DNA from: Piromyces finnis finn
Lineage: Eukaryota > Fungi > Neocallimastigomycota
Direction of reading: 5' to 3'
Assembly (NCBI GenBank): GCA_002104945.1
Contig: MCFH01000015.1
Location: 806,001-870,000, forward strand
DNA: 64,000 nucleotides
Positions 427-62,290 of the stretch are shown here, piece by piece. The position numbers and the translations under genes were made by a program. The notes under the pieces were generated by a model, which was not told the DNA's origin, made no database searches, and saw nothing but the letters and a program-made list of their open reading frames with translations. Within the stretch, counting starts at the first letter, position 1; every line of letters starts with the position of its first letter.

Positions 427-558
427 AGCTTTTGCACTTAGAAACGTGACTTTGGATTAACCTACGCTGATGCACGTGATGTCACAAAAGAAGAATTATA
501 CACGTGTTTACAACTATTAGTTATCGCCGACGCACATGTAGATAAATTAATGGTAGCT
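422..558 (+). pseudogene. rep: CRESS Rep N-terminus (HUH endonuclease motif I), frameshifted and truncated
   Basis: Restoring one T in the run at ~451-453 gives MPAFALRNVTFGLTYADARDVTKEELYTCLQLLVIADAHVDKLMVA. FGLTY matches RCR motif I, and the sequence breaks just before the expected motif II (HxH). Confidence 0.72.
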
Positions 559-1097
559 GATGGGGAATTTCCCACGGCTTTATCATTGGTTACTGTAGCA
601 GAAACCCCTTCAATACTCTGTGTCGGTAAGATTTTACGACCTTGTAAATAAGTACATAAATTATTGAACTTTAAATGACAAACACTATACCAAATAGTTT
701 TTGAGGCTGCACCAGCACCCATCCAAGAAAAACCAAATCTGTTTATATATTTGTTTTTAGTAGGGTTTGTTTTAAACAATTTGCGTAAAAATCGTTGTTC
801 GCGTGGTGTTCTACGTACTATCATACGTGTTGTAGTATGGGTTGTACCGGCAGCGTTTCCTTTAACTGATTCGAATTGTCTATTGCCAATCCTACGATTT
901 CTTCGTACAATCCTATCTCTTGCTCTACGTCCTAAATTTTGGGCCAATTGTCTTGCTTTATTACGCACCATCCTATTTCTCATTGCTCTTCGTAATACGT
1001 TACGTGCTACTACCGGTACTTTCCATAACGCTTGTCTTCCTATTTGTTGAATAGGATAATTTCTCGCTCTTCGTACAACTTGTTGTCGTTATGGCAT
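555..1097 (-). pseudogene. cap: CRESS capsid 5' half (Arg-rich arm), nonsense at codon 3, truncated
   Basis: MP*RQQVVRRARNYPIQQIGRQALWKVPVVARNVLRRAMRNRMVRNKAR... It matches 60716-61171, with 2 aa differences in the 143 codons from MRNRM to NSPSA. Confidence 0.85.
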
Positions 1098-1137
1098 TTT
1101 GATTGGTCAATCAAGTACATTCGTACATTATACGGAC

Positions 1138-1189
1138 ATTTATAGTAATTCCGCAAATTAAAGTTTAATTTAAAAAATTAATATAAATA
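1138..1189. promoter_or_regulatory. Divergent TATA boxes of the viral long intergenic region
   Basis: TATAAAT on minus (1144-1138) lies ~40 nt before the cap ATG (1097). TATAAATA on plus (1182-1189) points across the origin to the rep ATG (422) in the reconstructed circle. Confidence 0.45.
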
Positions 1190-1195
1190 GAGACT

Positions 1196-1220
1196 GGCAG
1201 GCAGGCATGGAGCGCTATAT
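1196..1220 (-). promoter_or_regulatory. Rolling-circle origin, half 2: post-nick AT, stem arm and GGCA x3 iteron-like repeats
   Basis: Minus strand starts ATA-TAGCGCTCCATGCC. Plus strand has GGCAGGCAGGCA at 1196-1207. Confidence 0.65.
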
Positions 1221-1750
1221 ATTATTAATATATTACATGTAATACTTTATTGCTATTCTTATCAATTTAATAATCTTAACAAAGGATATATAATAGAATG
1301 AATTGAATTCGATTTTAATTCGTTGTAAAGATTATAGTTATTATCTTAATTATATAGTTAATAAATATATTATATCATTTATATTACTATTAAATAAATA
1401 AAAATTTATAAAAAAGTTGTTTTAAAACAAATATTGATTTTTCTTATTTGGAAGTTTTAAGTATTATATTATTTATTAAATTAAATTTCTTAAAAAAGAT
1501 TTTACTATAAAATTAATAACATTCTGACCTGGCCACATAACCAAACCCTAAAACTTAATAAATTAAGTTAGTTATTACTTCTCTATACGAGTTAATAACT
1601 AAATATAGTTTTATAAAAAATAAATAAAAAACTAAAATAAATATTAAACACTAAAATATTTATTAATAATAAATATTAGTAGTAAATAATTTCGTTTTAG
1701 TAGTGTGAACGTATTCAAGAATTATCTTTTTGTTTTTTATATTATCTTTG

Positions 1751-3630: not shown

Positions 3631-3862
3631 TAATAGAATATACACATATATACGTATATATGCAAAAAAATTAAATTAATTTTATATTAATTAAAGTTTG
3701 AGAAATCTTTCATAATTAAATATTAAAAATTTATTAATGACATTTTATAATAATTTAAGTTTTAAAATTAAAATTTAATATTTCAATTTAATATCAATTA
3801 AAGTTAATTATAGCAAAAGAGTTTTAATAATGTAACATATTCATATTGATAAATACATGTAA

Positions 3863-3905
3863 TATTATATATTATATTATATTATATTATATTATATTAT
3901 ATTAT
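3863..3905. repeat. (ATTAT)n microsatellite
   Basis: Direct reading of tandem ATTAT units. Confidence 0.8.
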
Positions 3906-4665: not shown

Positions 4666-4685
4666 AATGTCCCTCCTAAATACAA

Positions 4686-23689: not shown

Positions 23690-25375
23690 TATTCATAAAA
23701 ATAATACAACTATAGAAAATAAAAATAAAACAAATATAACATATAACAATGAAAAAGAAGATTTCTTTTATTTAGAGAATAGTATTAATAATAAATATGA
23801 TAAATACTATCTTATTTATGCTAATAATACATATGCTACATCAAAAGAAAATATTTTAAAAAAGAGAGAACACAATTTGTAAATTCAGTTATACATGAAA
23901 TACATGATTTAATTTTAGAAAATAAAGAAACATTCAAAAATCAAAATAAATTGAGCGATTTAATAAAAGATGCCCATCCCTTAAAAAAAAGAAATAATAG
24001 CAATAAATCAAATTTAGTATTTGAAATTGCTTCTATAAATGGAGTATCAGTACTATTTTTTTTCCTTTCATATGAACTCAATAAAATAATAAAATCTATG
24101 CCTTATATTCGTGATATTGAACCAGATAAAAAATTAAAATTAAAAATACCTTCCTATGATGTTGAAAATTCCAAAAGCGGACTAAGAAATAAGAAATTTA
24201 ATTTTATTAATGATCCTGAAATTGATAAGATTCATAATCATAATAAAAATATTTTTAATGACAATAAGGTTAATATTGAAAAAATTAAAAATGAGATGGG
24301 ATGGAAAGACGTTAAAATAAAAAAAAATCTGATCTTCATCTGTCTCTAATCTCTCAAGGTAAATTTAATTTAATTCATATAATTTTGAAAATTACGATAA
24401 AAATTATTATTATCCAAAATCATCTGGAAAGGGAATAGATATTTACATTTTAGATTCTGATTTTAATTTTAATCAATGAATATTTAAATAATAATGAAAG
24501 AGAAGCAAAGTGTTTAGGTGTTTTCCGTAATGGTACATTTGATAAATCTAAAGATTGCTCCATGCCTAACGACCCACGCGGAGAATTAGTTGGTGGTATT
24601 AAACATGGTGTTGCTAGAAGTGCTAATATTTATGGTATGGCTATTGAATTCGATGGTGAAGATGGAACAACAATCAATAGATCGAATTTTATTAAAACTC
24701 TTGAGTATATTAGAAACAATATACCTATAAAAAAAATTGATATATATTAAATATTTTTTTAGGGAAATATTTTTCTATTGAAAAGGATGTAGAAAAAATC
24801 AATTTTATTAAAGAAAATTTTGCGAAATTAAATGAAAAAGGAATTGTGGTTATTACTTCTTCAGGTAATAATTGGAATAATATAATTAAAGAATATAAAA
24901 ATGAAACATTTAAGACTTTCATACGAATTAGATAATGTCGTTTTTATAGGAAGTATTGATAATTATAGCTATTATACCGATCCATATTTAACTTATTGGG
25001 CAACATGGATATAAAATATATGAATCAAATAATTATTCAAGAGCCCCTTTTTCAAATTATGGAAAAAATGTTAATGTTTTAGCTCCCGGTTTTGTCATTC
25101 TGGAATTCATAAATGAATACATTGAAGTAGAAGACATATTCATTGGCACTTCCTTTTCCAGTTCAATTGTTGCTGGTGTAGCAGTAACAATTATGAGTGA
25201 ACATTCACTCAATAAATTTAACTCAACATCTATGATTTCTTATATTACTAAACATGATTTAAATGGTATCACCGATATACAACGGCCCAGATATATTTAT
25301 AAATAATGGAAAAAAAGTATATATAATATTTCATCATATTTATATAATGAAGACGAAATTGATTCAGCCAAAGAA
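23690..25375 (+). pseudogene. Subtilisin-like (S8) serine protease pseudogene
   Basis: Ordered remnants: DIYILDSD (~24440, catalytic Asp motif), VGGIKHGVARSANIY, GIVVITSSGN (oxyanion Asn), SNYGKNVNVLAPG, GTSFSSSIVAGVA (~25145, catalytic Ser). The His motif is missing and there are several frameshifts. Confidence 0.8.
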
Positions 25376-41657: not shown

Positions 41658-42081
41658 TGATACGAAGAGGATATTATCTTAATTCTATATTTTACTATAG
41701 AAAGTGATAATATCTGTATCTAAAAATTTATAAATAAAAATAAGGAAAATAAAAATAGAATAAATGATTTTTATACTTGTTCATTTGCAAGTATTAGTTA
41801 ATTTTTAAAAATATAAAGTTTATTTAATTATAAAATTATCATTATTTAATAACTCTAGTATTATTAAATAAAAAAAATGTATGTTTTATATTCTAATTTT
41901 CAGGGATTATTAGTAACCCTTTTAAAAATAAGTTTTATTATAAAATCATTTTTGAATTTAATATTTAAAAGTATATATATCTAATTTTTCGCTCTGGATT
42001 ATTAGGAACATCTTTTAAAATAAAGTAATTCTATCACTATTTATACAAAATTATTATTTTAAAGTATAATTATAAACAAAT

Positions 42082-42808
42082 TGTAAAAGTTTTATAAATG
42101 TAAAACAGATTATAAAATTTTTTACAATAAAACAACAACACAAAATAAAGAAAAAACAAGAAAATAAATTATATTTAAAAAAATATCTCTTTTATTAATT
42201 TTATTTAGTTATTAACTAAATAATAGTCAATAACAATTACATCGTTTTAATCAAGAAATTTTACATGCATTTATATTTTTCGTAAATTATATTTTAATAT
42301 ACTATTCTATTTAATTATACATATATTCAATATAAAATAAACAAAACTAATTTAATACTAATTTAATTAAATAATAAAATAATAAAACTAAACTAAAACT
42401 AATTAAATACACTTTTGATTCAATTTGAGTAAACTGCAAATTGAATACAGTCCATGTATTACCTATATATTAATTAAATATTAATAATACTATTTATTAT
42501 ATATTTATAATTAAAAATGCTAATTTAAAACTACGCTAAAGTTATTAAACTAATTTTAATTAAATAAAAACTTTTTAAGATTTAATTTGAATATTTAAAA
42601 TATTTAAATTTAATTATCCATTAATTTAAATATTTATCCAAATTTCATTTCTAACTTTGATATTTTAAAATTAATATTTATTTAATTATTCCATAAAATT
42701 TATACAATAAATTTTATAAACAATTTTTTCATTAAAATATCAAAATTATTATTCAATAATTATTAATTAATTATTAAATAATTTAAAGATATACTTTATA
42801 TCTTTACA
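42082..42808 (-). repeat. 3' LTR (727 bp)
   Basis: TGTAAAAG...CTTTACA, matching 48236-48962. Confidence 0.95.
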
Positions 42809-42839: not shown

Positions 42840-45800
42840 TTATTTCTTTGAAGGAATATCAATTACAAATGGTTGATATCTATGTTTGATCATACCATTG
42901 TTATTCCTTGTATAGACTTGATCTTGACTTTCTTTTCTAGACTTTTTATTTTTTCTATAAAATTCTTGGATCAATTGTACATCTGTAATTTGATCTTCCG
43001 GGATCCAAGTATTTTCGTCAAGATTTTTCCATGTCATCAAGAAAGATTTCTTTCCATGATAATTTCTTTCTTGAATAATCTTATCAGGAATCCTATCAAT
43101 AGTATCAGTAGTTAACTTAACATTTTTTCTTTTATTCATTACTGATCTATTTACAAATTCATTTTCGTTATAAGGTTCCAATAACGAAACATGAAAAACA
43201 GGGTGGCAACGTAAATTGTTTGGTAGTTTTAATTCAAATGCTAAAGGGCTTACCTTCTTGATTATTTCAAAAGGTCCAAGCATTTGATCAGCAAGTTCTC
43301 TTTTGATATTTTTATTTGAAGGATTAATACCTTTTAATAACCAAACTTTTTTACCAACTTCGAAATCTGGGGATTCCATTCTCTTTTGATCAGCATACTT
43401 TTTGTAGGTTTCTTTTGCTTGATCAAGATTTACTTTTAAAAATTTAATGTTTTCATTAATATCCAAAATTCTTTGTTCAGCTCTATTTGGTCTATTCGCT
43501 GAAGGGATTTCAGGGTTAAATTTTGGATTGAACCCATAATTAGCGAAAAACGGAGATTGGTTGATTGATTGCTGTAAAGTATTGTTATAAGCAAATTCAG
43601 CAAAAGGTAACAAGTCAACCCAATTATTCTGTTTTTCGTTAATAAAACAACGGAGATATTGTTCCAATATCCCGTTTACCCTCTCCGTTTGACCATCAGT
43701 TTCAGGATGGTTTGCAGTAGAAAAAGCAAGTTTAATATTTAACAAATTACATAAACGATTCCAAAAGTCTGAGGTAAATTGAGTACCTCGATCAGAAATG
43801 ATGGAATCAGGAAAACCATGTAATTTAAAGATATTGTTAACAAAAACATCAGCTGCTATAGAAGCAGTAGGCAAACATCTTAAAGGAATAAAATGAGCCA
43901 TTTTTGTTAACCTATCAACTATAACCATAATGGTAGTCATGTCTTTGGATTTAGGAAGCTCGACAATAAAATCCATTGACAATTCCGACCAAGCTCTATT
44001 AGGTGTGGAAAGAGGAGAAAGCAAACCATATGGTTTATGTCTTGGAACTTTAGCTTTACAACAAGTTTCGCAAGACTTTATAAACTTTTTAACATCATAA
44101 CTAAACTTTGGCCACCAAAAATTTCTACTAATTAATTCAATAGTTTTATTAACACCAAAGTGACCAGCAGAAATAGAATCATGATGTAATTCTAAGACCC
44201 TAGTTCTTAGTGAAGAAGGAACATAAATTAAATTATCATAAAGTAAAAATCCTTCTTTATCAATTTTAACTTTATTAATATTCCTAATCGGAGGGGACGA
44301 AGAATTTTTATCATTAAGAAATACACAAACTTTATTATATAAATCATCATTTTTTAAGGAACATAGAATAGAATTAATTAAAGAATCATCTTTATTAAAA
44401 GAATTAATTACATTACATGAAATAAAATTACAACTAAAATTACTACATTCAATATTTTCATTAATCCTATCATTATTATAAATATTACAGATATGATCAC
44501 TACGTCTGGATAACAAATCAGGTTTACCAGACTTTTTTCCAGCTCTATAAATTAACTTAAAATCAAATCTTGATAAAAATTCATACCATCTTATCTGTCG
44601 TTGTGAGAGCATCTCAGGCTTTCTTGGAAAGGTTAAATTCTTATGATCAGTATAAATGATGAACTGATGCTTTGCACCTTCCAGATAATGCCTCCATTCT
44701 TCAAGAGCCACTTTGATAGCGAGCAACTCTTTATCATAAATTTGATAGTTCCTTTGAGACTTGGTTAAGCTAGATGAAATAAAAGCAATAGGGTGCAATT
44801 GCCCTTCAAATTCTTGTGAAAGAATTGCACCGACAGCAAAGTTACTAGCGTCAGTCTCAACAATAAAAGGTTTGTTGCTATCAGGGTTCATTAAGATAGG
44901 AGCTGAAGTAAAAGCCTTTTTAAGTGTAACAAATGCATTTTGACACTCAGAAACCCAATTAAAAGGAACATTTTTCCTAGTAAGTTTGTGTAGAGGACTA
45001 GCAATTTTCGCAAAGTCTTTAATAAAAATTCTATAATAATTACATAATCCAATAAAGGATTGAACTTCTTTAACGTTTGTAGGAACAGGCCAGTCGAGGA
45101 TAGCTTTAACTTTATCTCTATCCATTTTCAGACCATCTTTGGATAATACATAACCAAGGAAAGTGGTTTCTGAAACATCAAACTCACACTTCTCTAACTT
45201 AACATATAAATTATTTTCTAATAATTTTTTCAATACTTTTTTAACATGTTCATGATGTTCTTCTAGGCTATTTGAATATATTAGAATATCATCAATATAT
45301 GATATAGCAAAATCATCTAAATAATCACTAAGGACATCATTTATGAAATGTTGAAACGTAGCTGGTGCATTCTTTAAACCAAAAGGCATGACAAGATATT
45401 CAAAATGCCCATATCTTGTTCTAAAGGCAGTTTTGTATTCATCACCCTCTTTGATTCTAACTAAATTATAAGCAGACTTTAAGTCCAACTTAGTAAAGTA
45501 TTTTGCACCTTTCACTCTATCCAATAAGTCACCAATTAACGGAAGAGGATATGAATTTCTAATTGTCATGTCATTAAGTTTCCTATAATCAACGCAAAGT
45601 CTTAATGACCCATCTTTCTTTTTGACAAATAAAACTGGTGCTCCGGCAGGAGATGAAGATTTCCTAATGAAACCTTTTTCTAAATTTTCATTGATATAAT
45701 TTTTTAATTCATCTCTCTCTGCCTCAGTTAAAGGATAAAGAGGACCATAAAACAAGTTAGCATTATCCTTTAATCGGATTTCACAATCGTATTCACGATG

Positions 45801-47651
45801 TGGAGGTAAAATATTACAATTCTTTTCATTAAAAACCTCTTTAAATAATAAATATTGTTTTGGAATTTCAATAGATTTTTTATCTTTATTCAAATTATCA
45901 CTTTCACTTTTACATTTATTAATAATATTACAAAATAAATCATAACAGTTACTAACTGAATTTAATACACGAGAATTATTATTATTACACACGTTTTTTG
46001 AAAATGAGTACTGTTTTGGTCCAGTGACCGAATTATTATCTTTATTTAAATTTTCATCAATACAATTAATGCTATTACATATACATTTAAAATTACAATT
46101 ATTATCATTATTTAAACTATTACTAAATTTAATTTTATTAAAACTATCTAGGTTACTAATGGTTTTGACGGAGGTTCTACGGCCTCTAATACTTAATGTT
46201 TCTTCATCATCACTGGAGTCGCTATAAGAGTATTCATAATGATTGTATGAACCAAGTTCACTATAAGAGGATTGATCATCTTCATCATCTTGAATAACTT
46301 CTTTTCCTTTTCTTGATGATATTTTTTCTTTCTTGGTTTCCTTTGTGCTACTCTTGTTCTTTCTTCTTCCCACATTACAATGTCTGGCACAGTATGTAGA
46401 GTTAAATGCAATTTTGGAAGAATCGTGGTAGTAAACAGGGCAATGTTTATCAATCCAAGGTACACCAAGAATTATATCAACTTCAGGAATTCTAAGTGCA
46501 TATAATTGAATGACTTCGTAATGATTTCTCAAACGAAGGATGCACTTTTCGGATTCCTTTTTCACGGTAGATGTACCTTGCCCTAAACCAGAAACCTTGA
46601 AAGATTCAGCAATATTTGAAAGTTTAATATTATTGATTCGGGCGAACTCGGGGTGGATGAAATTAAGATCGGAACCAGAATCAATAAGTACCTTAGCTTT
46701 GACTTCATCAATATCATTGGTTTTGATATAAAAATCAATAATATTTTTCTTTTCACCTTTATGAATTTCGAATATGTTTGAAGTTCCCTTGGAATTAAGA
46801 TTATCCTTTTTAATTTTCTTGATTGAAGGGCTAGCTTCGTCTTCTGAATAGCATCTCTTGATAATTTTTACATTTTTTGGTTTCTTTTTGTTTGGACAAT
46901 TGAATTGAAAGTGTCCAGACTTTCCACAAGTAAAGCAAACTCCATTCTTCTTAGCCTCAGTGCGATTTATTTTATTTTCGTCATAATTACTTCTATGAGG
47001 AGGGAAGTAATTAACCTTTCTTTGACCTAAACTGATCCTATATAAATCCACATCCATAGGATCATTTTGGTTATAATTTCTTCGGTCTTGATGCGTCATG
47101 TAATATTCACTGATATCATTTCTCTTAGTAAGATTTTCAATACTAAGGACATCAGAATAAAGACGCTCTAATTGAGAGGGATTTGGATTCACTACAGCTA
47201 AATGTTCACGCATTTTCGGATGTAATCCCTTTGTGAACATGTATATTTTAGCTGCTTCATTAAAATTCGAATTTTGGCTAACGCGTTGGAATTCGTTAAT
47301 GTATTCGAACACCTTGCCAAATTTTCTTTGTTTAATGTTGCAAAGTCTTCCATTTGCAACAATCGTATCATTATTCGGATCCCCGAAATTGGTACGAAGA
47401 GCAGCAATAAACCGATCATAGTTTCTTAGAACGGCGTCGTTATTTTGTCTTAAACGAGCGGCCCATTCTAAAGGTCTATTGACAAAGTAAGATATTAAGA
47501 ATCGAACTCTTGCCTCATCATTAACAAATCTATCAGGGTTGGCTTCAATGGCTAGTTCAACCCTGGTCAAGAACCCATCTAGTTCTTGTCTTCTTCCTGA
47601 AAAGGTTGGAGGATCATTAACTATCCTCAAAGACGCCCCTTGACGGTCCAT
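42840..47651 (-). CDS. gag-pol: Gag-Pol polyprotein: Gag, CCHC, protease, RT, RNase H, integrase, chromodomain
   Basis: First ATG at 47651 (the track's 47699 start is TTG). Motifs CFTCGKSGHFQFNC, LIDSGS, YIDD, TDAS/ELLA/TDH, H..H..C..C, MDF/SDRG/QTERVN, GPF, and C-terminal SFLMTWK..NTWIPE. Confidence 0.96.
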   Translation of the reverse strand: MDRQGASLRIVNDPPTFSGRRQELDGFLTRVELAIEANPDRFVNDEARVRFLISYFVNRPLEWAARLRQNNDAVLRNYDRFIAALRTNFGDPNNDTIVANGRLCNIKQRKFGKVFEYINEFQRVSQNSNFNEAAKIYMFTKGLHPKMREHLAVVNPNPSQLERLYSDVLSIENLTKRNDISEYYMTHQDRRNYNQNDPMDVDLYRISLGQRKVNYFPPHRSNYDENKINRTEAKKNGVCFTCGKSGHFQFNCPNKKKPKNVKIIKRCYSEDEASPSIKKIKKDNLNSKGTSNIFEIHKGEKKNIIDFYIKTNDIDEVKAKVLIDSGSDLNFIHPEFARINNIKLSNIAESFKVSGLGQGTSTVKKESEKCILRLRNHYEVIQLYALRIPEVDIILGVPWIDKHCPVYYHDSSKIAFNSTYCARHCNVGRRKNKSSTKETKKEKISSRKGKEVIQDDEDDQSSYSELGSYNHYEYSYSDSSDDEETLSIRGRRTSVKTISNLDSFNKIKFSNSLNNDNNCNFKCICNSINCIDENLNKDNNSVTGPKQYSFSKNVCNNNNSRVLNSVSNCYDLFCNIINKCKSESDNLNKDKKSIEIPKQYLLFKEVFNEKNCNILPPHREYDCEIRLKDNANLFYGPLYPLTEAERDELKNYINENLEKGFIRKSSSPAGAPVLFVKKKDGSLRLCVDYRKLNDMTIRNSYPLPLIGDLLDRVKGAKYFTKLDLKSAYNLVRIKEGDEYKTAFRTRYGHFEYLVMPFGLKNAPATFQHFINDVLSDYLDDFAISYIDDILIYSNSLEEHHEHVKKVLKKLLENNLYVKLEKCEFDVSETTFLGYVLSKDGLKMDRDKVKAILDWPVPTNVKEVQSFIGLCNYYRIFIKDFAKIASPLHKLTRKNVPFNWVSECQNAFVTLKKAFTSAPILMNPDSNKPFIVETDASNFAVGAILSQEFEGQLHPIAFISSSLTKSQRNYQIYDKELLAIKVALEEWRHYLEGAKHQFIIYTDHKNLTFPRKPEMLSQRQIRWYEFLSRFDFKLIYRAGKKSGKPDLLSRRSDHICNIYNNDRINENIECSNFSCNFISCNVINSFNKDDSLINSILCSLKNDDLYNKVCVFLNDKNSSSPPIRNINKVKIDKEGFLLYDNLIYVPSSLRTRVLELHHDSISAGHFGVNKTIELISRNFWWPKFSYDVKKFIKSCETCCKAKVPRHKPYGLLSPLSTPNRAWSELSMDFIVELPKSKDMTTIMVIVDRLTKMAHFIPLRCLPTASIAADVFVNNIFKLHGFPDSIISDRGTQFTSDFWNRLCNLLNIKLAFSTANHPETDGQTERVNGILEQYLRCFINEKQNNWVDLLPFAEFAYNNTLQQSINQSPFFANYGFNPKFNPEIPSANRPNRAEQRILDINENIKFLKVNLDQAKETYKKYADQKRMESPDFEVGKKVWLLKGINPSNKNIKRELADQMLGPFEIIKKVSPLAFELKLPNNLRCHPVFHVSLLEPYNENEFVNRSVMNKRKNVKLTTDTIDRIPDKIIQERNYHGKKSFLMTWKNLDENTWIPEDQITDVQLIQEFYRKNKKSRKESQDQVYTRNNNGMIKHRYQPFVIDIPSKK

Positions 47652-47869
47652 ATTTTCGTTTAAGTGGAGGTTAGATAAGAGTTGGTTGATTTCCTCCAAT
47701 ATGCTTAATATTTTACTTATTTAATTTTTTACAATATTTTAATTAAGATGTCGTCGTAACTCTATCCTATCAAACGGTGTTAGACGAGCTCTTAAAAATA
47801 TAGTAACAAAATTAAATACAGTAACCAAATAGTGTTGGAAGCTTGAATGATACTAAAATAATAATCTAA

Positions 47870-48224: not shown

Positions 48225-48235
48225 GTAATTGTTAT
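48225..48235 (-). promoter_or_regulatory. Self-priming PBS (ATAACAATTAC)
   Basis: Abuts the 5' LTR, has no TGG, and is perfectly complementary to the LTR sequence at 48384-48394. Confidence 0.85.
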
Positions 48236-48962
48236 TGTAAAAGTTTTATAAATGTAAAACAGATTATAAAATTTTTTACAATAAAACAACAACACAAAAT
48301 AAAGAAAAAACAAGAAAATAAATTATATTTAAAAAAATATCTCTTTTATTAATTTTATTTAGTTATTAACTAAATAATAGTCAATAACAATTACATCGTT
48401 TTAATCAAGAAATTTTACATGCATTTATATTTTTCGTAAATTATATTTTAATATACTATTCTATTTAATTATACATATATTCAATATAAAATAAACAAAA
48501 CTAATTTAATACTAATTTAATTAAATAATAAAATAATAAAACTAAACTAAAACTAATTAAATACACTTTTGATTCAATTTGAGTAAACTGCAAATTGAAT
48601 ACAGTCCATGTATTACCTATATATTAATTAAATATTAATAATACTATTTATTATATATTTATAATTAAAAATGCTAATTTAAAACTACGCTAAAGTTATT
48701 AAACTAATTTTAATTAAATAAAAACTTTTTAAGATTTAATTTGAATATTTAAAATATTTAAATTTAATTATCCATTAATTTAAATATTTATCCAAATTTC
48801 ATTTCTAACTTTGATATTTTAAAATTAATATTTATTTAATTATTCCATAAAATTTATACAATAAATTTTATAAACAATTTTTTCATTAAAATATCAAAAT
48901 TATTATTCAATAATTATTAATTAATTATTAAATAATTTAAAGATATACTTTATATCTTTACA
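48236..48962 (-). repeat. 5' LTR (727 bp)
   Basis: Matches 42082-42808. Confidence 0.95.
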
Positions 48963-49089: not shown

Positions 49090-49129
<40 letters not shown>

Positions 49130-50956: not shown

Positions 50957-51003
50957 GCCACAAATATTTCTTACATGGTACAACCTGTTTGTTTTGTTTG
51001 TAC

Positions 51004-52837: not shown

Positions 52838-52907
52838 TATTATAAAAGTGCGCTAAGCACCAATTAGTTAGTAATTATTAATAACTAAATATAATAATTA
52901 AAGTTTA

Positions 52908-55900
52908 ATGGGAAAATCTCCACTTACACCTATTAAAGTGGATACAAAAGAATTTTTTAACCGCCTACAAACTACCAAGAGAGAACGTTCCCCAGGAAAT
53001 ACTCCCGTAAGAAAATCAAAGATGCCTAATCATTCCGGACAAATTAATGCTTCTACGAGTAATCCTACTCAGAAGCCAACTACTAATGAGGATCTCAAGG
53101 CCCTCATTGAGTCTTTAACTGCTACCTTAACTGGGAATATCAATCAGTTAAAGGTTGATATTCAAGCTACCAGAAGGGAAAACGAAAGTCTCAATGATCG
53201 TTTGACTGTTTTGGAAAACTCTACTCAAGTTATTATGGGTAAGATGGCTACTTTAGAAGTCAACGATGCTAGGAAAGACAATCAACTCGCTGATATCAAA
53301 GCTCATATCAGCAAAGCTACTCAAAGAGTTGATGAGTTGTCTACTCCCGTTACTCCTTCTACTACTACCCCTCACGAACCTGACGGTGACGTCATCATGG
53401 GAGATGCTTCGCCTCCAAACGTCGCTGAAAAAATGCTTTCTTACTCAGGAGAAAGTATTCAACTACGCAGATTCATCCGTCGATGCGAACACCACTTCTT
53501 AAGACACATCAAGTTCTATGGAAACAATGAAGCTATGAAAGTAAACTTCATTGAAGATTGTCTTACTGGTGATGCTGCAGATTGGTACGTTGTTGAACAA
53601 GCAGACTTCCAGGAATCTCATCCGAATAGAAAAGTTCTTTACGAAGCTTTGAGTAAGAGATTCCTTAACCCGAAGGATATCAACATCACCAAAATCGACC
53701 TGATGAAGCTCAGACATAGTTGGGGAAAAGCTTCCGAATACTTAGGAAAATTCTCCCAATATGTCAAATTAATTGGATGTTCCGAAGACATTCAATTAAC
53801 CATCATGCTTTTCCAAGTTAGACCTACCGTGAACCACGCCTTTAGTAAGTTAACTTCTGATAGACAAACGTTAGAAGAACTGAAGAATCTTCTAATCAAA
53901 TATGATGCTTCCAAGGATACTTATTACGATGATACTTTGGAAAGACAAGCTAACTACAAGGACAAAGAGCCCTTAATAGCTAATTTATTAGGTATTCATG
54001 GCAGTCTTTATTCCAAAAACCCTAACAAGAATAACAATCGTAATAACAACCAAAGGAACAACAATAACAGCAATCGCCCGTCTAACCAAAAAGGAAAAGG
54101 CTCCAGTAACTTGGATAGCAAGTCTAGTACTAAAAATCCCAATAAAAGTACTAAACCTAATAATGGTACTTCATACTCCAGCTATCTCTGTGAAGTAGAA
54201 GAGCAAGATATCTTAGAGCTACCAAATCCTGATCCGGAGAAGTATCCCATCGTGAAGACTAGTGTAAAAACTTCTAAAGGATCTAGACAGGTTATCACTT
54301 CGTCTCTCTTAGATTCTGGCTCTACTACCAATGTAATCCATATGGATTTAGTGAAGAAACTAGGAATTAAGACCATACCAGCTGATACTGTTGTAAAGGT
54401 CATGGGAGGTAATGTCCTAATGCATTACATCACAGAAGAGTTCAACATTGTAATGAACTTATCTTCTTTAGGAAGAACTCGAGAAGAAGTTCGTCAATAC
54501 AAACTTCGATGCCACGTAGCTGATCAGCTTCCTTCTTCGATTCTCCTAGGTTCTAAGTTCATGAAAACCAACTTCTTCTGTATCTTTACACAACCTGACC
54601 ATTCCTTTACAGTTAAAATTGGTCCTGTTCCTTTCTCCAACCATAATGGATCTGAGATTAAATCTCCTAACTTTAGGAATGATTTGAAGAAATCTACACC
54701 TCTTCATGAATTACGCGAAGTCCTCCAAAAGAGACAGTTCGTCTTAGACGAACAATGGGACAAAGAACATTTGAACGATCGAGGAAGAATCGTGATCAAG
54801 AAACAATCAAGCAAGAAACCCAATAATAACCATGTCCACAACACAGAAACGATAACCCTATCCAACGAAGAAAAACTGAAAATCGAACAAAGGCTTCTTA
54901 AACAAAAACAAAACAATCAAAGTTTTATAATCTCAACTGACCATAAAGAAGGACTCGACGAATACATTATCAAGGAAATACAAAACCTCCCTCAAGAATT
55001 ACAAGAATTCAAGCAAGTTTTCGGACCACCACCAAAGGGCAAGATATTTAATAGGAAAAACGAAAATTTAAATTCATACTTACCTTATGATAAGGAAAAA
55101 GTTAAGAGGCTACCCATGATGCCTCACATCAAATTAGACAAAAACCAAGAAGACGCTCTTGAACAAGAATTTCATGAACTTGAACAGAACGGAAAAATCG
55201 AGAGAACTCGATCCAGTTCGGCTTGCAACGTCTTTAATGCACCTAAGAAAGATGGTACATTCAGAACTGTGTTTAATTACGTTATGGTTAATAATTGCCT
55301 ACACCATAACAACTACCCAATACCTAAAATAATCGAACTTGTACACAGAGCTGCCCAGTATAAGTTCCATATTTTACTAGATTTAAGAAATGCCTATAAC
55401 CAAATCTATCTCGAGCCCAAATATCGTTTCCTTACAAGCTTTAGATTTAAAAACCAAACCTATCAATGGAAAGTTCTTCCCTTTGGACTCTCCACTGCCC
55501 CATCCATTTTCCAATCCATTCTCAACCTCTTATTAAAAATATACTTGAATAAAGGTATTGATATCTACCTAGATGATATACATATTTATGCCCAAGATAA
55601 GCAAGAATGCCTCAGACTTTGTGCTTACACTTTAAAGAAGTTCAAAGAAAATAATTTCTTTTGTAAACTTGAAAAATGCTTATTTTTCCCAGAAGAATTC
55701 GAATATTTAGGGTACAAAATTGGATATGAAAAAATACGTCCTATTTCTAATAAAACTTTAGACATTAAAGAATGCAAAACACAAAAGGAATATCAGCAAC
55801 TATATGGCTTTCTTAATTATTTCAAAGACTACGTAAATAACTTTACCGAAAGAACAAAATATATCTCTATGGGACTATCAAATAAAACCACTACTTGGAC

Positions 55901-57923
55901 TAAAGAAATGAATGACGAACTAAATTATTTTAAGAAATTAATTCCTAACCTTCCAAATTTAGCACCGTTTAAACCTAACCACGATATCTTTATCCTAACC
56001 GACGCATCGGAAATCGGAATTGGCGCCGCAATTTTTCAAGCGGGGGCCCCCAATGTACATATTCAAAATTACATTTTAAGTAACGTATACAAGAATAATA
56101 TTAATCGTGAAATCATCGAAAACTTATTTGGTCATAAAAATTGGACATTAAACGGACATTCTGAAGTAAATGGACGTGAAAATAAGAAAATCGATAAAGC
56201 CAAGAATCGTGAAGATATCAATCCACCAATTAAATTGAATGAAGCAATGAATACATTTGAAATAAAAAACAATAGTTTATCCGAATTAAAAAAGTATTTA
56301 AAACCCATAGGCTTTTTCTCCAGAAAATTGAATTCTACAGAAAGAAAATATTCAACATTCGACAGAGAATTATTAGCTCTCTCGGACACCTTACAACACT
56401 ACCGGTTACTTCTCCAACAAGGACAAAAAATATACTGTGCGACGGACCATAAGAATTTGGTAATCTACATAAATTCCGGATCCAAAGTCGAAACTAATCG
56501 TAAGTTAAGATTATTTGAAAATATTTGCAATTACAATATAATACCTTATTATATCGAAGGAAAAGACAACAAGATTGCAGATCTACTCTCAAGATTTATT
56601 AAAATGGAAAACGAAACCGAAAATACTAGCAACAGAAGAAACCCACAGCAGGTCAACAATATTGAAGAAACAAATTCTTTGGATTTCTTAGTAAATGCCA
56701 TTGAACTCAAGGACTTAGAATCTACCAACAAAGAAGAAGATAACGAGGAACCAGACTTAAAAGTCTTTAAGACTACCATAAGTTCGCTAATGGAAAATAA
56801 TAAACAAAAGGAACTAAAAAATTATCTTATCAATTGGTACAAGAACCAGGATATGTTATTCAAATCATTGAAGGAACAAATAGTAAACCTACTAGAAGAA
56901 AACACTTTCTTCGAAAAACAATATAAAAAACAAGTTAATCTCAGATGTCAAGACCTAAAAGATGTATTGGATAAAAGAGAACATTTTAGTTCAGAAATAA
57001 AAAAGGTGAAAGATGAATTACAACTTCTACAAACTGGCAACACCCAAGGAGAAACTAAAAGAAAATTTGATAGACTTAATCAAAAAATAAACGATTTAAG
57101 GTATGACCTCAATCCAAAGGCTGAAAGAATAGAACTCACTAAGAAAGTAAACCATTCGGAAAAACAGATAACTGCCCAATGGAAAGAGATAGAAAACCTC
57201 AAGAAAATAATAGAAAAAATGGATAAAAGGATAACTGCCCTAATCATTGACAACGAAGAAGACTCAAATCTGGATAAATCAACTTCCATTCCAACAGAAA
57301 CAGTCTTCATAGTCGATGATCAGAATCCTGAACTAGTAGAATCTATCAACGGTATACCTTTGGAATATGAAGATTTATATGAAGCCTTCAATGAAGAACG
57401 AGCCGATGAACTTCCTGAACATCGTGTATATGATTGTTCTATTGATTTGAAACCTAATGCTTCATTATTTTATGGGCCAATTTATCCAACTACTCCTACT
57501 GAACGTCAATTTATTAAGGAGTATATTGAAGAAAACTTGAATAAAGGATTCATTAGAAAATCCCGATCTCCTGCTGGACATCCAGTTCTACTCCAAGATA
57601 AGAAGGATGGTAGTCTCAGATTTTGCGTTGACTATCGCAAGCTCAACGACCAAACTATCAAGAATGCCTATCCGCTACCTTTAATCCTATCAGTCTTTGA
57701 ATCAATGAAAGGTGCTAACTATTTCACTAAGTTAGACCTCAAGTCAGCTTATAATTTAATTAGGATTAAAGAAGGTGACGAATACAAGACTGCATTTAGG
57801 ACGGCATTTGGTCACTTTGAGTACTTAGTCATGCCTTTTGGACTAACTAATGCTCCTGCAGTTTTCCAAGCTTTCATTAATGATATCTTTAGTGATCAAA
57901 TTAATAAGTACGTTCAAGTGTAA
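52908..57923 (+). CDS. gag-pol: Polyprotein part 1: Gag, protease, RT1, RNase H1, coiled-coil domain, N-terminal half of RT2
   Basis: Gag (YSGESIQLRRFIRRCEHHF), LLDSGS, RT1 (LLDLRNAYNQI, LPFGLSTAP, YLDD at 55566), RH1 (TDAS, RELLA, TDH, ADLLSR), then a second RT ([37 protein letters not shown]). Confidence 0.92.
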   Translation: MGKSPLTPIKVDTKEFFNRLQTTKRERSPGNTPVRKSKMPNHSGQINASTSNPTQKPTTNEDLKALIESLTATLTGNINQLKVDIQATRRENESLNDRLTVLENSTQVIMGKMATLEVNDARKDNQLADIKAHISKATQRVDELSTPVTPSTTTPHEPDGDVIMGDASPPNVAEKMLSYSGESIQLRRFIRRCEHHFLRHIKFYGNNEAMKVNFIEDCLTGDAADWYVVEQADFQESHPNRKVLYEALSKRFLNPKDINITKIDLMKLRHSWGKASEYLGKFSQYVKLIGCSEDIQLTIMLFQVRPTVNHAFSKLTSDRQTLEELKNLLIKYDASKDTYYDDTLERQANYKDKEPLIANLLGIHGSLYSKNPNKNNNRNNNQRNNNNSNRPSNQKGKGSSNLDSKSSTKNPNKSTKPNNGTSYSSYLCEVEEQDILELPNPDPEKYPIVKTSVKTSKGSRQVITSSLLDSGSTTNVIHMDLVKKLGIKTIPADTVVKVMGGNVLMHYITEEFNIVMNLSSLGRTREEVRQYKLRCHVADQLPSSILLGSKFMKTNFFCIFTQPDHSFTVKIGPVPFSNHNGSEIKSPNFRNDLKKSTPLHELREVLQKRQFVLDEQWDKEHLNDRGRIVIKKQSSKKPNNNHVHNTETITLSNEEKLKIEQRLLKQKQNNQSFIISTDHKEGLDEYIIKEIQNLPQELQEFKQVFGPPPKGKIFNRKNENLNSYLPYDKEKVKRLPMMPHIKLDKNQEDALEQEFHELEQNGKIERTRSSSACNVFNAPKKDGTFRTVFNYVMVNNCLHHNNYPIPKIIELVHRAAQYKFHILLDLRNAYNQIYLEPKYRFLTSFRFKNQTYQWKVLPFGLSTAPSIFQSILNLLLKIYLNKGIDIYLDDIHIYAQDKQECLRLCAYTLKKFKENNFFCKLEKCLFFPEEFEYLGYKIGYEKIRPISNKTLDIKECKTQKEYQQLYGFLNYFKDYVNNFTERTKYISMGLSNKTTTWTKEMNDELNYFKKLIPNLPNLAPFKPNHDIFILTDASEIGIGAAIFQAGAPNVHIQNYILSNVYKNNINREIIENLFGHKNWTLNGHSEVNGRENKKIDKAKNREDINPPIKLNEAMNTFEIKNNSLSELKKYLKPIGFFSRKLNSTERKYSTFDRELLALSDTLQHYRLLLQQGQKIYCATDHKNLVIYINSGSKVETNRKLRLFENICNYNIIPYYIEGKDNKIADLLSRFIKMENETENTSNRRNPQQVNNIEETNSLDFLVNAIELKDLESTNKEEDNEEPDLKVFKTTISSLMENNKQKELKNYLINWYKNQDMLFKSLKEQIVNLLEENTFFEKQYKKQVNLRCQDLKDVLDKREHFSSEIKKVKDELQLLQTGNTQGETKRKFDRLNQKINDLRYDLNPKAERIELTKKVNHSEKQITAQWKEIENLKKIIEKMDKRITALIIDNEEDSNLDKSTSIPTETVFIVDDQNPELVESINGIPLEYEDLYEAFNEERADELPEHRVYDCSIDLKPNASLFYGPIYPTTPTERQFIKEYIEENLNKGFIRKSRSPAGHPVLLQDKKDGSLRFCVDYRKLNDQTIKNAYPLPLILSVFESMKGANYFTKLDLKSAYNLIRIKEGDEYKTAFRTAFGHFEYLVMPFGLTNAPAVFQAFINDIFSDQINKYVQV

Positions 57924-60317
57924 TTGGATGATATCATTATCTACTCCAAGACCCTTGAAGAACATGTTCAACATGTTAGAAATGTTCTTCAATTAATCAT
58001 TGAAAACAACTTAGTTGCGAAACTCAAAAAATGTGAGTTTCACAAAGCTGAAATCGAATTTTTGGGTCACGTAATCAGTAAGGAGGGAATCAAAACTGAT
58101 CCTCACAAAATTGAAGCAGTTAAGAACTGGCCTATCCCCACTACTGTGAAAGAAGTTCAGTCTTTCTTAGGGTTATGCAATTACTACCGTCGCTTTATCT
58201 CTAACTTTTCTAAAATTGCAAAACCATTATACAACTTAACTAAGAAAGGCGTCACTTTCATATGGACAGACGAGTGTAATAGAGCATTTAATCAACTTAA
58301 AGAATTTCTTACTTCAGCTCCAGTTTTACTTTGTCCTGATCACGATAAACCATTCATAGTTGAATGTGACGCAAGTGACTTTGCTATCGGGGGAGTACTT
58401 TCACAAAAAGGTGATGATGGAGACCTGCATCCAGTTTATTACTTTTCTAAAACCCTTCATGATGCAGAACTTAATTACTCTATCACCGAAAAGGAACTCT
58501 TAGCAATTCGTCAAGCTTTTATCGAATGGCGTCACTTACTTCAAGGTGCAAAATATCCTATTACCGTTTATTCAGACCATCGAAACTTGCTTTTTGCTAC
58601 CAAACCGCAACTTCTATCCCAAAGACAAGCTCGTTGGCAAGAATACTTTGCTACTTTTGATTTCAAGATTATCTATCGACCAGAAAAGAAAAATGGTAAA
58701 GCTGATGCTCTCTCTCGTAGATCCGACCATATGCTCACAGTTGGTAAGGATATAAGTGAATCATCCTTACTTAAACCAACTCAATTAGAAGGATTCAACG
58801 AAGATGAATGCTACTTCTCTATGGAAACTAGCTTCATTGACGACATTAAGCAGTGCTACCTTCAAGATGAAACCGCTTGTCAGATTCTTAAGGATCTTGA
58901 AGTTCCAAATAGTGATCATCCTTGGATTCTTCAAGATGGCCTTTTAATAAGAACCAAACATCCGGAGCAAGTATATGTTCCAAGTCAACTAAGACTCTTA
59001 GTTATTAAGCTCAACCATGATGCACCCACTGCCGGTCACTTGGGAGTCGATAAGACTTATGACATTCTTAAACGTAATTTCTATTGGGTTAATATGCGTC
59101 AAGATGTCGAGTCTTATATTCGAAGCTGTAGTGTATGCAAGGCAATGAAAACCGATCACCATGCTCCTTATGGTAATATGATCCGTGTCCCTCTTCCGGA
59201 ACTTCCATGGCAACATCTACAAATGGACTTTATCACGGACTTACCATCAAGACCTTGTAACTCTACCTTACCATTCGACTCTACCAATCCGAACCACTAT
59301 CAAGGTACCATAATGGTTACTACTTGCTACTTAACTAAGATGATACACTTAGTTGGGTTCAAACATTTATCCACTGCTAAGGAAACTGCTACTGCTTTTC
59401 TTAACCATATTTTCAAACTGCACGGATTCCCCTTATCTATTGTTACAGACCGTGGTACTCAGTTCGAAAGTCGTCTTTGGTTCCACTTGATGGAATTCTT
59501 TAATATCGATCACCACTCTGCTACTACTGGCCATCACCGCACTGTTGGACAAGTAGAACGTAACAACGACTACGTCGAAACTTATCTTCGTTGCTACTTA
59601 GCTCAATTTGATGATCTCAGTTGGATGGATCATTTGTACTTAGCTGAATTTTGCTACAACAATTCCATCCATGCTTCCACCAAGCAACCACCATTTCTCT
59701 CCGTCTATAATTATCAAGTTCACGCAAACCCACAAATTGCAGACCTTGTTTCTTCTTTAGGACTTCATCCCCTCATCGATAGCTTCTCCCATAACTTAGC
59801 TGACCTTAAGCATACTCTCGAAGTCAGTCGTACCCGTTATCTCGATGAAAAGGATAAGCACCTTTATCACAACTTTAAGCGCTTCAAGGTCCACGATCTT
59901 GTTTGGCTTCGCAAACCCGCTAATTATCATCCTCCATTAGCGTTCAAGCTCCAAACCCGCAAGTATGGTCCATACAAGGTCACTGGTGTCGATGAATCTA
60001 AGCTCAACTACCGCCTTGATTTATCTACCTCACCTTTCCCTCGTGTCTACCCCGTATTCCACATCAGTGAACTCGAACCATATCATCCCACTCCTCACCA
60101 TCTATTGCTCAACCATCCCAACTCCAATGAAATCACCAAGATCCTTAGTTCTCGTAAATCGGGTCATTTTTACGAGTACTTAGTCACTTTTACTGACTTA
60201 TCTCAACGTTGGATCAATGCTGACACCATTGATAAGGATGACTACTACAGCACCCTTTTAGCTGATTACCAACGTCGCGCTTACCAACAATTCACCAATT
60301 CCGTCCCAGATTCTTAA
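57924..60317 (+). CDS. pol: Polyprotein part 2 (same frame, after TAA): rest of RT2, RNase H2, integrase, chromodomain
   Basis: LDD, CDASD/KELLA/SDH/ADALSR, HDAPTAGH..CSVC, MDF/TDRG/QVERNN, GPYKV, EITKILSSR..YEYLVTF..RW. Confidence 0.9.
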   Translation: MDDIIIYSKTLEEHVQHVRNVLQLIIENNLVAKLKKCEFHKAEIEFLGHVISKEGIKTDPHKIEAVKNWPIPTTVKEVQSFLGLCNYYRRFISNFSKIAKPLYNLTKKGVTFIWTDECNRAFNQLKEFLTSAPVLLCPDHDKPFIVECDASDFAIGGVLSQKGDDGDLHPVYYFSKTLHDAELNYSITEKELLAIRQAFIEWRHLLQGAKYPITVYSDHRNLLFATKPQLLSQRQARWQEYFATFDFKIIYRPEKKNGKADALSRRSDHMLTVGKDISESSLLKPTQLEGFNEDECYFSMETSFIDDIKQCYLQDETACQILKDLEVPNSDHPWILQDGLLIRTKHPEQVYVPSQLRLLVIKLNHDAPTAGHLGVDKTYDILKRNFYWVNMRQDVESYIRSCSVCKAMKTDHHAPYGNMIRVPLPELPWQHLQMDFITDLPSRPCNSTLPFDSTNPNHYQGTIMVTTCYLTKMIHLVGFKHLSTAKETATAFLNHIFKLHGFPLSIVTDRGTQFESRLWFHLMEFFNIDHHSATTGHHRTVGQVERNNDYVETYLRCYLAQFDDLSWMDHLYLAEFCYNNSIHASTKQPPFLSVYNYQVHANPQIADLVSSLGLHPLIDSFSHNLADLKHTLEVSRTRYLDEKDKHLYHNFKRFKVHDLVWLRKPANYHPPLAFKLQTRKYGPYKVTGVDESKLNYRLDLSTSPFPRVYPVFHISELEPYHPTPHHLLLNHPNSNEITKILSSRKSGHFYEYLVTFTDLSQRWINADTIDKDDYYSTLLADYQRRAYQQFTNSVPDS

Positions 60318-60742
60318 TCTGGACCCCACTTATTAGTATCCCACCTACTAGTGTCTACCACCCTTACTCCTTCACTACCCACCTATCGCCACTACCCCAC
60401 CTACTACCCACAACTCCGCTACCCACTAGTCGCCACCACTACAACTACCAACCACTATTCCGCTACCCAACCACCCTCTTTCGCCTTTGCCCTCAACCCT
60501 CAAATTCCGCAACCTTTTCCGCATCCCAAAATCCGTATCCCCTCGAGTCATATCATTTCCCTAACCTTCACGTGTAGTCTCCATTTCTGAAGAATCCACG
60601 TGATACCCTCACAACTTTTCTTTGAACACTTTTACACCTCACTTTTTCAACACTTAGAAAAATTTTGAGAATTTTCAAAAAATGGAAATTCTCAATTTTT
60701 GAAAAAAAATCTAAGGTAGCACGTAACGTATTACGAAGAGCA

Positions 60743-61867
60743 ATGAGAAATAGAATGGTGCATAATAAAGCAAGACAATTGGCTCAAAATTTAGGACGTA
60801 GAGCAAGAGATAGGATTGTACGAAGAAATCGTAGGATTGGCAATAGACAATTCGAATCAGTTAAAGGAAATGCTGCTGGTACAACCCATACTACAACACG
60901 TATGATAGTACGTAGAACACCACGCGAACAACGATTTTTACGCAAATTGTTTAAAACAAACCCTACTAAAAACAAATATATAAACAGATTTGGTTTTTCT
61001 TGGATGGGTGCTGGTGCAGCCTCAAAAACTATTTGGTATAGTGTTTGTCATTTAAAGTTCAATAATTTATGTAATTATTTACAAGGTCGTAAAATCTTAC
61101 CGACACAGAGTATAGAAGGAGTTTCTGCTACAGTAACCAATGATAAAGCCGTGGGAAATTCCCCATCAGCTGGTATTTACGTTGGTAAATGTACATTCCA
61201 TTACGAATTGTATAACCCAACTAATTATTTAATGACCGTATACATTTACGATTTAATTTGTAAATGTGATACACCACATCAAATAGCATATTCTGATGCT
61301 AATAATGATGGTAATAGTGCCCCTGAAGCTTGTATGCAAAAGGGTTCAAAATCCATGACCGATGGAGGTTCTGCCCCAACATGGCAAGTTGCAGACCCTA
61401 CACTCGAAATGGGTACATATTGGAATACTGTTGGTATGAAACCAACGGACTATCATTTATTTAATACGATTTGGAAAGTCAAAGGAATGAAAAAAATCAT
61501 TTTACCACCTGGATCATCACACCATCACGTGGTTATATACAACCCAAAAAAGAAGATAACCAATGCTAGTTTATTATACCCTAGAGAAACTAGACATACT
61601 AATAATAAAATGGGTATTGGTGGTATTACACAAGCAACTTTATTTGGTTTTGAAGGTCAAGTTGCAACTGAAGACAATCAACGTAGTGATGGTACAATTG
61701 TAGGTACATTACCTGGTAAATTATTAGTTAAATGTATTAAAAAGGTAAATATATGGGATCTTCCATGTAACTATCAATCAGTAACATCTGAAGATGATTT
61801 AGTAGCAACATGGACTAAACCAACTATATTCTCTGATTTAGTAGAAGTCAATGCAAGCTCTACATAA
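60743..61867 (+). CDS. cap: CRESS virus capsid protein (Arg-rich arm plus probable single jelly-roll), 374 aa from first in-frame ATG
   Basis: Very Arg-rich N-terminus followed by beta-strand-type segments (FHYELYNPTNYLMTVYIYDLIC, IWKVKGMKKIILPPGSSHHHVVIY). Near-identical to the copy next to a Rep and origin at 401-1220, and converges on a Rep remnant. Confidence 0.85.
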   Translation: MRNRMVHNKARQLAQNLGRRARDRIVRRNRRIGNRQFESVKGNAAGTTHTTTRMIVRRTPREQRFLRKLFKTNPTKNKYINRFGFSWMGAGAASKTIWYSVCHLKFNNLCNYLQGRKILPTQSIEGVSATVTNDKAVGNSPSAGIYVGKCTFHYELYNPTNYLMTVYIYDLICKCDTPHQIAYSDANNDGNSAPEACMQKGSKSMTDGGSAPTWQVADPTLEMGTYWNTVGMKPTDYHLFNTIWKVKGMKKIILPPGSSHHHVVIYNPKKKITNASLLYPRETRHTNNKMGIGGITQATLFGFEGQVATEDNQRSDGTIVGTLPGKLLVKCIKKVNIWDLPCNYQSVTSEDDLVATWTKPTIFSDLVEVNASST

Positions 61868-62137
61868 GAACACGTGACATACAACTAAGTTAACGTGTTT
61901 GATCCCTGTGAGCCGCAGGCTCTAGACCCTGGCCGTTGACTATCACATGTTTATATCTCATGGTGATCATGTGATGAGTCACACCCTCCCACTTATCCAT
62001 AGCCAAGTGGTTCTGAGAGGATTGTTTCCTACTCTGGACGGACGGCTCTGGGGGAGTAGGAGGAACAGATTTTTTTATTATTTTTATTTAACACAAAATG
62101 TATACAACACAAATATAATGTAATGTAATGTAAATAT
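61868..62137. other. GC-rich, hairpin-rich viral short intergenic region
   Basis: Stems AACACGT/ACGTGTT, GAGCC-GCA-GGCTC, ATCACATG/CATGTGAT, CCACTT/AAGTGG and TCCTACTC/GAGTAGGA. Confidence 0.6.
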
Positions 62138-62150
62138 AATAAACTTTATT
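62138..62150. terminator. Back-to-back polyadenylation signals AATAAA-C-TTTATT
   Basis: AATAAA on plus (62138-43) for cap. AATAAA on minus (62150-45) overlaps the rep stop. Confidence 0.6.
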
Positions 62151-62290
62151 TAATATAATTTATTTTGTAAAACAATACAAGTACAATTTTTTTTTAAAAA
62201 GTTTAAGTGTTCAATATTTAAATTCTTATATAAATCTTCATTGGATAACCAAATCATTGGTTTTCCCCAATGAACCGTTCTTTTAAAATT
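62150..62290 (-). pseudogene. rep: CRESS Rep C-terminus (SF3 helicase motif C region)
   Basis: FKRTVHWGKPMIWLSNEDLYKNLNIEHLNFLKKNCTCIVLQNKLY* follows the genomovirus/geminivirus pattern K..I.WGKP.IWL.N...WL..NC.F..L..PL(F/Y)*. Confidence 0.8.

Follow-up and report, generated by a model that had tools for sequence, protein, structure and literature searches.

An 820-nt viral circle, opened in its own origin, as a likely insertion in the DNA of an anaerobic gut fungus, Piromyces finnis

In the directed integration of adeno-associated virus (AAV), the viral replication-associated protein (Rep), an HUH enzyme, acts on a host look-alike of the viral origin. Defective subgenomic DNAs of geminiviruses are, for their part, deletion circles that retain the origin (PMC3187698). 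We describe here a locus that recalls both systems and differs from them in being a defective circle of a CRESS DNA virus (circular, single-stranded and encoding Rep) that probably lies in a fungal chromosome with the origin at both of its ends. It is found, together with a second viral copy, in a window of 64,000 nt (the whole stretch of DNA analyzed, to which all positions refer) of a 911,805-bp contig of Piromyces finnis. The reading that we consider probable is that both stretches are viral DNA of one lineage of circular single-stranded DNA viruses, likely integrated in the P. finnis genome, and that copy 1, an 820-nt origin-bounded deleted form, was likely inserted by a viral Rep into a host site resembling the origin. 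Integration of CRESS virus DNA by Rep is usually assumed; copy 1 offers a junction resolved to the base and a concrete substrate on which to test it.

Other described systems resemble this locus to various degrees. Genomoviridae, comprising SsHADV-1, a hypovirulence-associated DNA virus of Sclerotinia sclerotiorum, with its relatives, share with it a fungal host, a geminivirus-like Rep carrying a stretch that resembles the geminivirus Rep sequence (GRS), ambisense genes and the nonamer, whereas their genomes span about 1.8–2.4 kb (PMC11052389) against some 2.7 kb here, and the 412-aa capsid of the present virus has no Pfam match. The cattle blood-associated gemycircularvirus has a capsid (YP_009551433.1, or P0075) that is also encoded, in identical form, by the complete 2,734-nt genome L004. 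Both agree with the present virus in the capsid (53% identity) and the ambisense layout with an unspliced Rep (332 aa in L004), and L004 also in having TAATATTAT in a stem right before the Rep ATG and the shorter spacer on the origin side. On the other hand, the L004 Rep is only 37–39% identical and belongs to a sister clade, and its stem counts 14 bp instead of 8. Replication of the cattle blood virus in cattle is unproven according to PMC5769433, which describes genomes of 2,192 and 2,926 nt, P0075 being matched to neither. The endogenous CRESS elements of Entamoeba and Giardia concern other families and hosts, and the accessible part of that report (PMC7493932) describes no junction at a nick site. 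As for anaerobic gut fungi, which drive herbivore fibre digestion, our literature search found no characterized DNA virus, the nearest being ‘Pecoramyces gemycircularvirus A’, a Rep-like transcript from such a fungus that PMC9501391 presents as one contig of 307 nt with a 36-aa match (E 9e-5), known without genome, capsid or placement. Neither Piromyces nor any name in Neocallimast- is mentioned in the accessible part of PMC9615429, and the search returned no paper tying the present virus lineage to gut fungi; the supplements of surveys of endogenous Reps may already list them.

The two viral stretches lie about 60 kb apart, as an initial annotation of the window had claimed. They are in inverted orientation, and their repeats 555–1010 and 60716–61171 are identical at 448 of 456 nt (98.2%). 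The capsid codons assigned to each copy by that annotation, the two amino-acid differences in the overlap (152 common codons, or 143 if counted from the second Met), the Rep 3′ end in copy 2 and the TAATATTAT nonamer are all found again (Table 1), and the capsid length of 412 aa, then a reconstruction, is seen directly in a natural intact copy, ORX54321.1. Copy 1 had been rightly recognized as a viral piece, its start being placed at 555, which leaves out the nonamer and the Rep start to its left. Nor is it a colinear piece of the genome: with the nonamer and a Rep start joined to mid-capsid sequence it forms a permuted, internally deleted unit, an 820-nt circle that lacks most of Rep and half of the capsid gene (the 3′ half) and is open at the origin loop. 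Its ends are ambiguous by 4 nt (398–401 and 1217–1220). In a contig of run X1 derived from another copy (X1 is a DNA run, X2 and X3 being RNA by guess only) positions 1078–1217 are followed by 398–557; thus these segments are neighbors on the viral circle and 398–557 is viral. Near the viral DNA of copy 1 there is a single exact TAATATTAT, another one standing at 301 in the host flank, and the 8-mer of each stem arm is unique on the window's plus strand. The two arms are split, one at each end of copy 1 and neither of them eroded, so that, as expected, no stem-loop folds at either junction alone. The origin-bearing intergenic region, called long in the initial annotation, measures only about 144 nt and is shorter than the 282-nt region called short; the L004 spacers are arranged likewise (120 nt on the origin side, 316 nt on the other). 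Finally, the copies do not complement each other into one virus, as had been proposed. They likely represent different variants, at least four loci and three variants of the Rep start exist in the genome, and most of Rep is absent. The non-redundant viral DNA amounts to 1,939 nt, i.e. about 72% of a genome estimated at 2.7 kb (2.68–2.70 kb), and the window holds about 45 and 46 of some 340 Rep codons, about a quarter of the protein. The present analysis goes beyond the initial annotation with an origin-bounded insertion at a look-alike site and with two fungal genera, and yields less than it in that there is no single virus and little Rep.

Table 1. Features of the two viral copies and of the adjoining host DNA in the 64,000-nt window
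Feature	Position	Strand	Basis or remark
Copy 1, internally deleted viral circle of 820 nt opened in the origin loop	401–1220		X1 contig joining 1217 to 398; insert length; junction comparison
Nonamer TAATATTAT at the left junction	399–407	−	Seven viral bases and two common with the host site
Origin stem arm, 8 nt	411–418	+	Exact reverse complement of 1210–1217
Rep 5′ fragment of about 45 codons with motif I FGLTYAD and a frameshift near 441	422–557	+	74% identity to P0146 residues 12–50, E 9e-13
Deletion junction between Rep start and mid-capsid, 3-nt microhomology	555–557		Rep match stops at 557, capsid match begins at 555
Capsid codons 1–181, stop at codon 3	555–1097	−	Copy 1
Intergenic DNA on the origin side, with the second stem arm (1210–1217) at its end	1098–1220		87% over 30 nt to the same L004 region
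Host half of the target site	1221–1232	−	With the left flank matches the viral nonamer at 8/9 and the loop at 13/15
Host hairpin-forming repeat end abutting copy 2	60650–60715		Fold z −2.8
Copy 2, capsid codons 30–412, open frame	60716–61867	+	98.7% identity to ORX54321.1; 103 relatives; jelly-roll
Intergenic DNA between converging gene ends, 282 nt	61868–62149		Part of the region and the Rep end align to L004, 69% over 283 nt
Rep 3′ end of about 46 codons with motif C IWLSN; approximate right boundary	62150–62290	−	17 Rep matches, best E 6e-18

Searching with the copy 2 capsid retained 104 proteins among 1,483 candidates, namely the window's own and 103 relatives at 46–68% identity. Most of the relatives (92 of 103) have 400–465 aa, and 56 are encoded on contigs of 2.6–2.95 kb, none on a contig longer than 10 kb. 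Since their source records bear no habitat label, the connection with dung or rumen viromes suggested by the initial annotation is conjectural. Pfam gave no match to the capsid or to the two Rep fragments of the window, and none of the 6 pattern matches in IMG/VR or the 27 in GTDB genomes was confirmed; in JGI metagenomes, one of 42 proved to be a distant locus of about 25% identity. The Atlas search returned solely Cressdnaviricota clusters, at a low recognition value that makes it a lead only. The capsid structure was predicted from 61 sequences (pLDDT 86) and compared with 48,161 chains, only four of which reached a Z-score of at least 8: satellite tobacco necrosis virus (STNV; Z 10.3, root-mean-square deviation 3.6 over 171 aligned residues), a nanovirus (Z 9.4) and two geminiviruses, Ageratum yellow vein virus (Z 9.2, 4.1 over 179) and maize streak virus (Z 8.8, 3.9 over 174). 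The top named matches in BFVD are likewise CRESS capsids. In this predicted model the capsid is a single jelly-roll of geminivirus/STNV type, which bears out the earlier proposal of a CRESS virus, for which the lack of such a fold would have counted as a refutation. Residues 1–80 of ORX54321.1 include 24 Arg or Lys. One member of the capsid family, P0069 (MBO7692651.1, 57% identity), is annotated as a Methanobrevibacter protein; its 2,660-nt contig is likely a viral genome that was binned with an archaeal assembly by mistake.

The Rep fragments belong to a sharply delimited clade. Of 120 matches to a 15-Rep profile, 28 score at least 437 bits and the next one 223; among 1.84 billion representatives, the clade corresponds to one full-length 50% cluster (603 bits), the next full-length match scoring 225. 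Motifs I–III, Walker A and B and motif C were found in the clade Reps, the window holding only both ends of the protein; the search patterns for GRS and Walker B are too crude for a comparison between groups. Pfam detects Gemini_AL1 (E 3e-7, P0154) and Gemini_AL1_M (E 2e-5, ORX44058) in clade members. We built a large tree of 187 rows, made up of 30 clade Reps, two phytoplasma plasmid Reps and those 155 of the 227 other matches that passed a filter of 285–385 aa, and a small one of 49 hand-picked rows. The clade of 30 sequences, including a fragment from Anaeromyces robustus, has a support of 100/100 and is joined to its sister clade at 99/88, while the ten Reps sampled from core genomoviruses, of which five are named, group separately, the clade lying outside; exclusive sisterhood of the clade with these core genomoviruses is rejected. 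The initial annotation, which saw a possibly unclassified virus related to Geplafuvirales, is supported on this point by a geminivirus-like Rep in a clade outside the sampled genomoviruses. A geminivirus-type HUH-SF3 (superfamily 3) Rep, a single jelly-roll capsid and a stem-loop nonamer with ambisense genes are the traits of Geplafuvirales, in which, judging from these sequence characters, the virus is probably an unclassified member. As to a candidate Rep start at 1494–1571, it was dropped, having no Pfam match and no tblastn match to clade Reps.

It is rather unlikely, though still worth attention, that the virus belongs, as a divergent member, to Genomoviridae or Geplanaviridae, both existing families, and represents no new lineage. 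A named relative is indeed filed by NCBI under Gemykibivirus cowchi1, the TAATATTAT nonamer and the weak Gemini_AL1 matches point in the same direction, and Geplanaviridae genomes of 2.3–2.9 kb (PMC13689118) overlap the clade in size, a capsid of this family being among the BFVD fold matches (rank 27, 13% identity). Several properties of the trees also weigh against a separate lineage: the grouping of the clade with its sister and the core genomoviruses is not rejected (approximately unbiased test, p 0.29), deep nodes are not resolved, and no geminivirus or Geplanaviridae Rep is labelled in either tree, most of the ten genera of Genomoviridae likewise having no labelled exemplar. Furthermore, the outgroup may itself derive from the same order (PMC6668415). 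Yet the clade Rep is only 33–45% identical to four named Reps outside it, and the gap between 603 and 225 bits separates it from every other full-length match. D or E is the last residue in the four commonest forms of its motif I, FGLTY[AP][DE] (23 of 27 Reps), whereas the listed core genomovirus and sister-clade forms end in Q or R, so that the clade departs from the uuTYxQ of Genomoviridae, as it does from their genome size. Moreover, it is in the sister clade, and not with the named gemykibivirus, that the L004 Rep is placed. We note that the NCBI label Gemykibivirus cowchi1 does not suit the L004 Rep and that one capsid family occurs with two Rep clades about 40% apart (L004, P0284 cluster). 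A geminivirus-like Rep of a different clade, P0268, is found in Gymnopilus junonius on a 45-kb contig.

The window itself is AT-rich and full of copia and gypsy remains, in keeping with a neocallimastigomycete host as suggested by the initial annotation, and contains no diagnostic host gene from which the host could be confirmed. Further support comes from relatives recorded from such fungi. The 90% cluster of the window capsid has four members, two from the window's own contig and two named P. finnis, i.e. ORX54321.1 (412 aa, intact, on a 1.08-Mb scaffold) and ORX44057.1 (448-kb scaffold), the latter followed at the next locus tag by a Rep, ORX44058.1; it should be said, against this support, that the other P. 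finnis loci are known from protein records only. A Rep encoded on a 2,702-nt contig shares 88% identity with the A. robustus fragment. Since both P. finnis and A. robustus, members of Neocallimastigomycota, carry related sequences, two genera of this phylum hold the virus lineage. The lineage, with genomes of about 2.7–2.9 kb, an unspliced Rep of 329–361 aa and a capsid of 400–465 aa, likely infects anaerobic gut fungi in general. UniRef already labels ORX54321.1 as capsid and both fungal Reps as Rep; the sequences were thus already known to the databases. With integrated copies in two genera, over 100 orphan capsid clusters acquire a host that can be tested, and the virus named from cattle blood could, as these copies suggest, be a gut-fungal passenger. 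Genetic tools for these fungi have been few (PMC5796279), which makes a native origin and its Rep interesting in practice.

Both ends of copy 1 fall inside the 4-nt interval that holds the presumed nick, as expected for Rep-mediated insertion. The host sides read TAATAAT and AT, which reproduces 8 of 9 nonamer bases and 13 of 15 loop bases; in the host background such sites occupy 0.4–0.7% (8/9) and 0.02–0.04% (13/15) of positions. The canonical nick is TAATATT/AC. The single nonamer mismatch is at position −2, and in cleavage assays of Rep positions −4 and −1 are the most preferred, −3 and −2 only slightly (PMC7826260). L004 has the same succession of nonamer, stem and Rep ATG; a second, uninterrupted copy of the target site was not found within the window. 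In the course of events that we propose, the virus would replicate by rolling circle in fungal nuclei, and a deletion involving a 3-nt microhomology would produce a defective circle retaining the origin. Rep supplied by a helper genome would then nick this origin and the host TAATAAT/AT site and join the strands, the insertion leaving no visible target duplication. Copy 2 would represent a separate entry from another variant; it may have arrived as a fragment, or have been a longer insert that was shortened afterwards in this region rich in retrotransposons. From the junction sequences we consider it probable that a helper Rep inserted copy 1 by nicking and joining strands, cleavage of the host target being predicted.

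Some weaknesses of this reading must be considered. It concerns a single event, its statistics were chosen after seeing that event, and the position of the nick is taken over from the canonical one. In addition, four of the matching bases are those of the junction microhomology, and repair-driven joining therefore fits equally well. The main rival of Rep insertion is indeed capture by host repair, in which Rep nicks only the viral origin and the opened molecule, by way of microhomology in AT-rich DNA, is joined to a broken chromosome, the nonamer look-alike being a reflection of that microhomology. The four letters that fit either side of the junction are in keeping with it, as are the 1–3 nt of microhomology at other junctions, the 382 sites with an 8/9 match in 54,000 positions of low-GC tiles and the known propensity of origins to be recombination hot-spots (PMC3187698). 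We nevertheless consider repair capture unlikely: the match reaches 10 of 12 bases 5′ of the nick and so extends past the microhomology, the preferred −4 and −1 bases are retained, and both stem arms are intact.

Insertion by Rep could also be part of a broader picture, which we regard as rather doubtful, of a new single-stranded DNA virus lineage of anaerobic gut fungi at the family level, whose Rep would reversibly insert and release circles at nonamer look-alikes, in a temperate-like manner and with polymorphism within the strain. Look-alike sites are abundant in the very AT-rich genomes of these fungi, and the idea of polymorphism is based on the presence of copy 1 in the assembly and on a possible empty site in run X1. 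Indeed, one X1 contig joins 399 to 1218, with a depth of 150 against 149.4 for the left flank, and X1 contigs match the unique flanks without differences. Conversely, none of the X1 contigs aligned has copy 1's own letters at 412–519 or spans the 555 junction, and neither host junction of copy 1 is found in X1, which leaves copy 1 without independent support. These points speak against the integrated form: read as an empty site, the 399–1218 joint means that copy 1 may be either polymorphic in the strain or unsupported. The joint itself has weaknesses, with 27 letters on its short side and three spurious-looking skips nearby in AT-rich DNA, and contigs drop variants; in our estimate, copy 1 could equally well be absent from most X1 nuclei or not. 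That it is an assembly chimera or stems from a minority of molecules is highly improbable. The X1 depth over 412–573 is admittedly explained in whole by contigs of other copies (207.2; 340.5 as weighted sum), and the depth of the empty joint equals that of the flank. A chance ligation, however, would not end twice in the origin loop nor at a nonamer look-alike, and copy 1 has variant letters of its own, partly codon-spaced. The depth of X1 contigs is about 550 on the capsid and 150–190 on the unique flanks, a ratio that, without being a copy number, gives a hint of some three copies in X1, with no high-copy episome.

In the overlap the two copies differ by six silent changes and two replacements, which corresponds to a ratio of non-synonymous to synonymous rates (dN/dS) of 0.10 and to P = 0.0025 against neutral change after insertion. 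The differences therefore likely arose among replicating viruses, and, on this sequence comparison, the copies likely came from separate viral variants. Rep starts diverge more: that of copy 1 shows 19 differences in 160 letters to an X1 contig and 12 in 104 to X2 and X3 contigs. The low divergence is consistent with the recent insertion proposed initially. A single insertion from which both copies would derive as pieces or duplicates, as their 98.2% identity and their proximity on one scaffold might suggest, is very hard to reconcile with the excess of silent changes, their opposite orientation, unrelated flanks and different architecture, and a third locus equally close to each.

The right junction of copy 2 is bridged by an X2 contig from another study, which spans 62217–62395 without differences. 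Against its integration, none of the X contig pieces listed bridges the left junction, 69 further pieces lying beyond those listed. The hairpin at this junction is preceded by a long terminal repeat (LTR)-like repeat (about 60340–60652) of a Ty3/gypsy element. The same hairpin also directly precedes another variant of the Rep start in X2 and X3 contigs (the X3 record has 461 nt and a depth of 20), which constitutes a further viral junction at this repeat; such hairpin ends may attract or carry viral DNA. On the other side of copy 2, the short non-Rep segment 62290–62376 is common to another locus that diverges after 62376.

The remainder of the window contains other elements. Nested Ty3/gypsy frames with two reverse transcriptase regions occupy 52902–60317 and 63014–64000, and the segment 56406–57257 has an inverted relative at 63146–64000 (73–80%). 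The sole non-transposon Pfam match above the cut-off (34 frames) is a subtilase-like fragment at 24992–25306 (PF00082, E 7e-5). An apparently intact gypsy element with a chromodomain (42840–47720) is flanked by 42080–42516 and 48234–48670; its LTR segments are 100% identical over 300 nt, and it is thus a very recent insertion.

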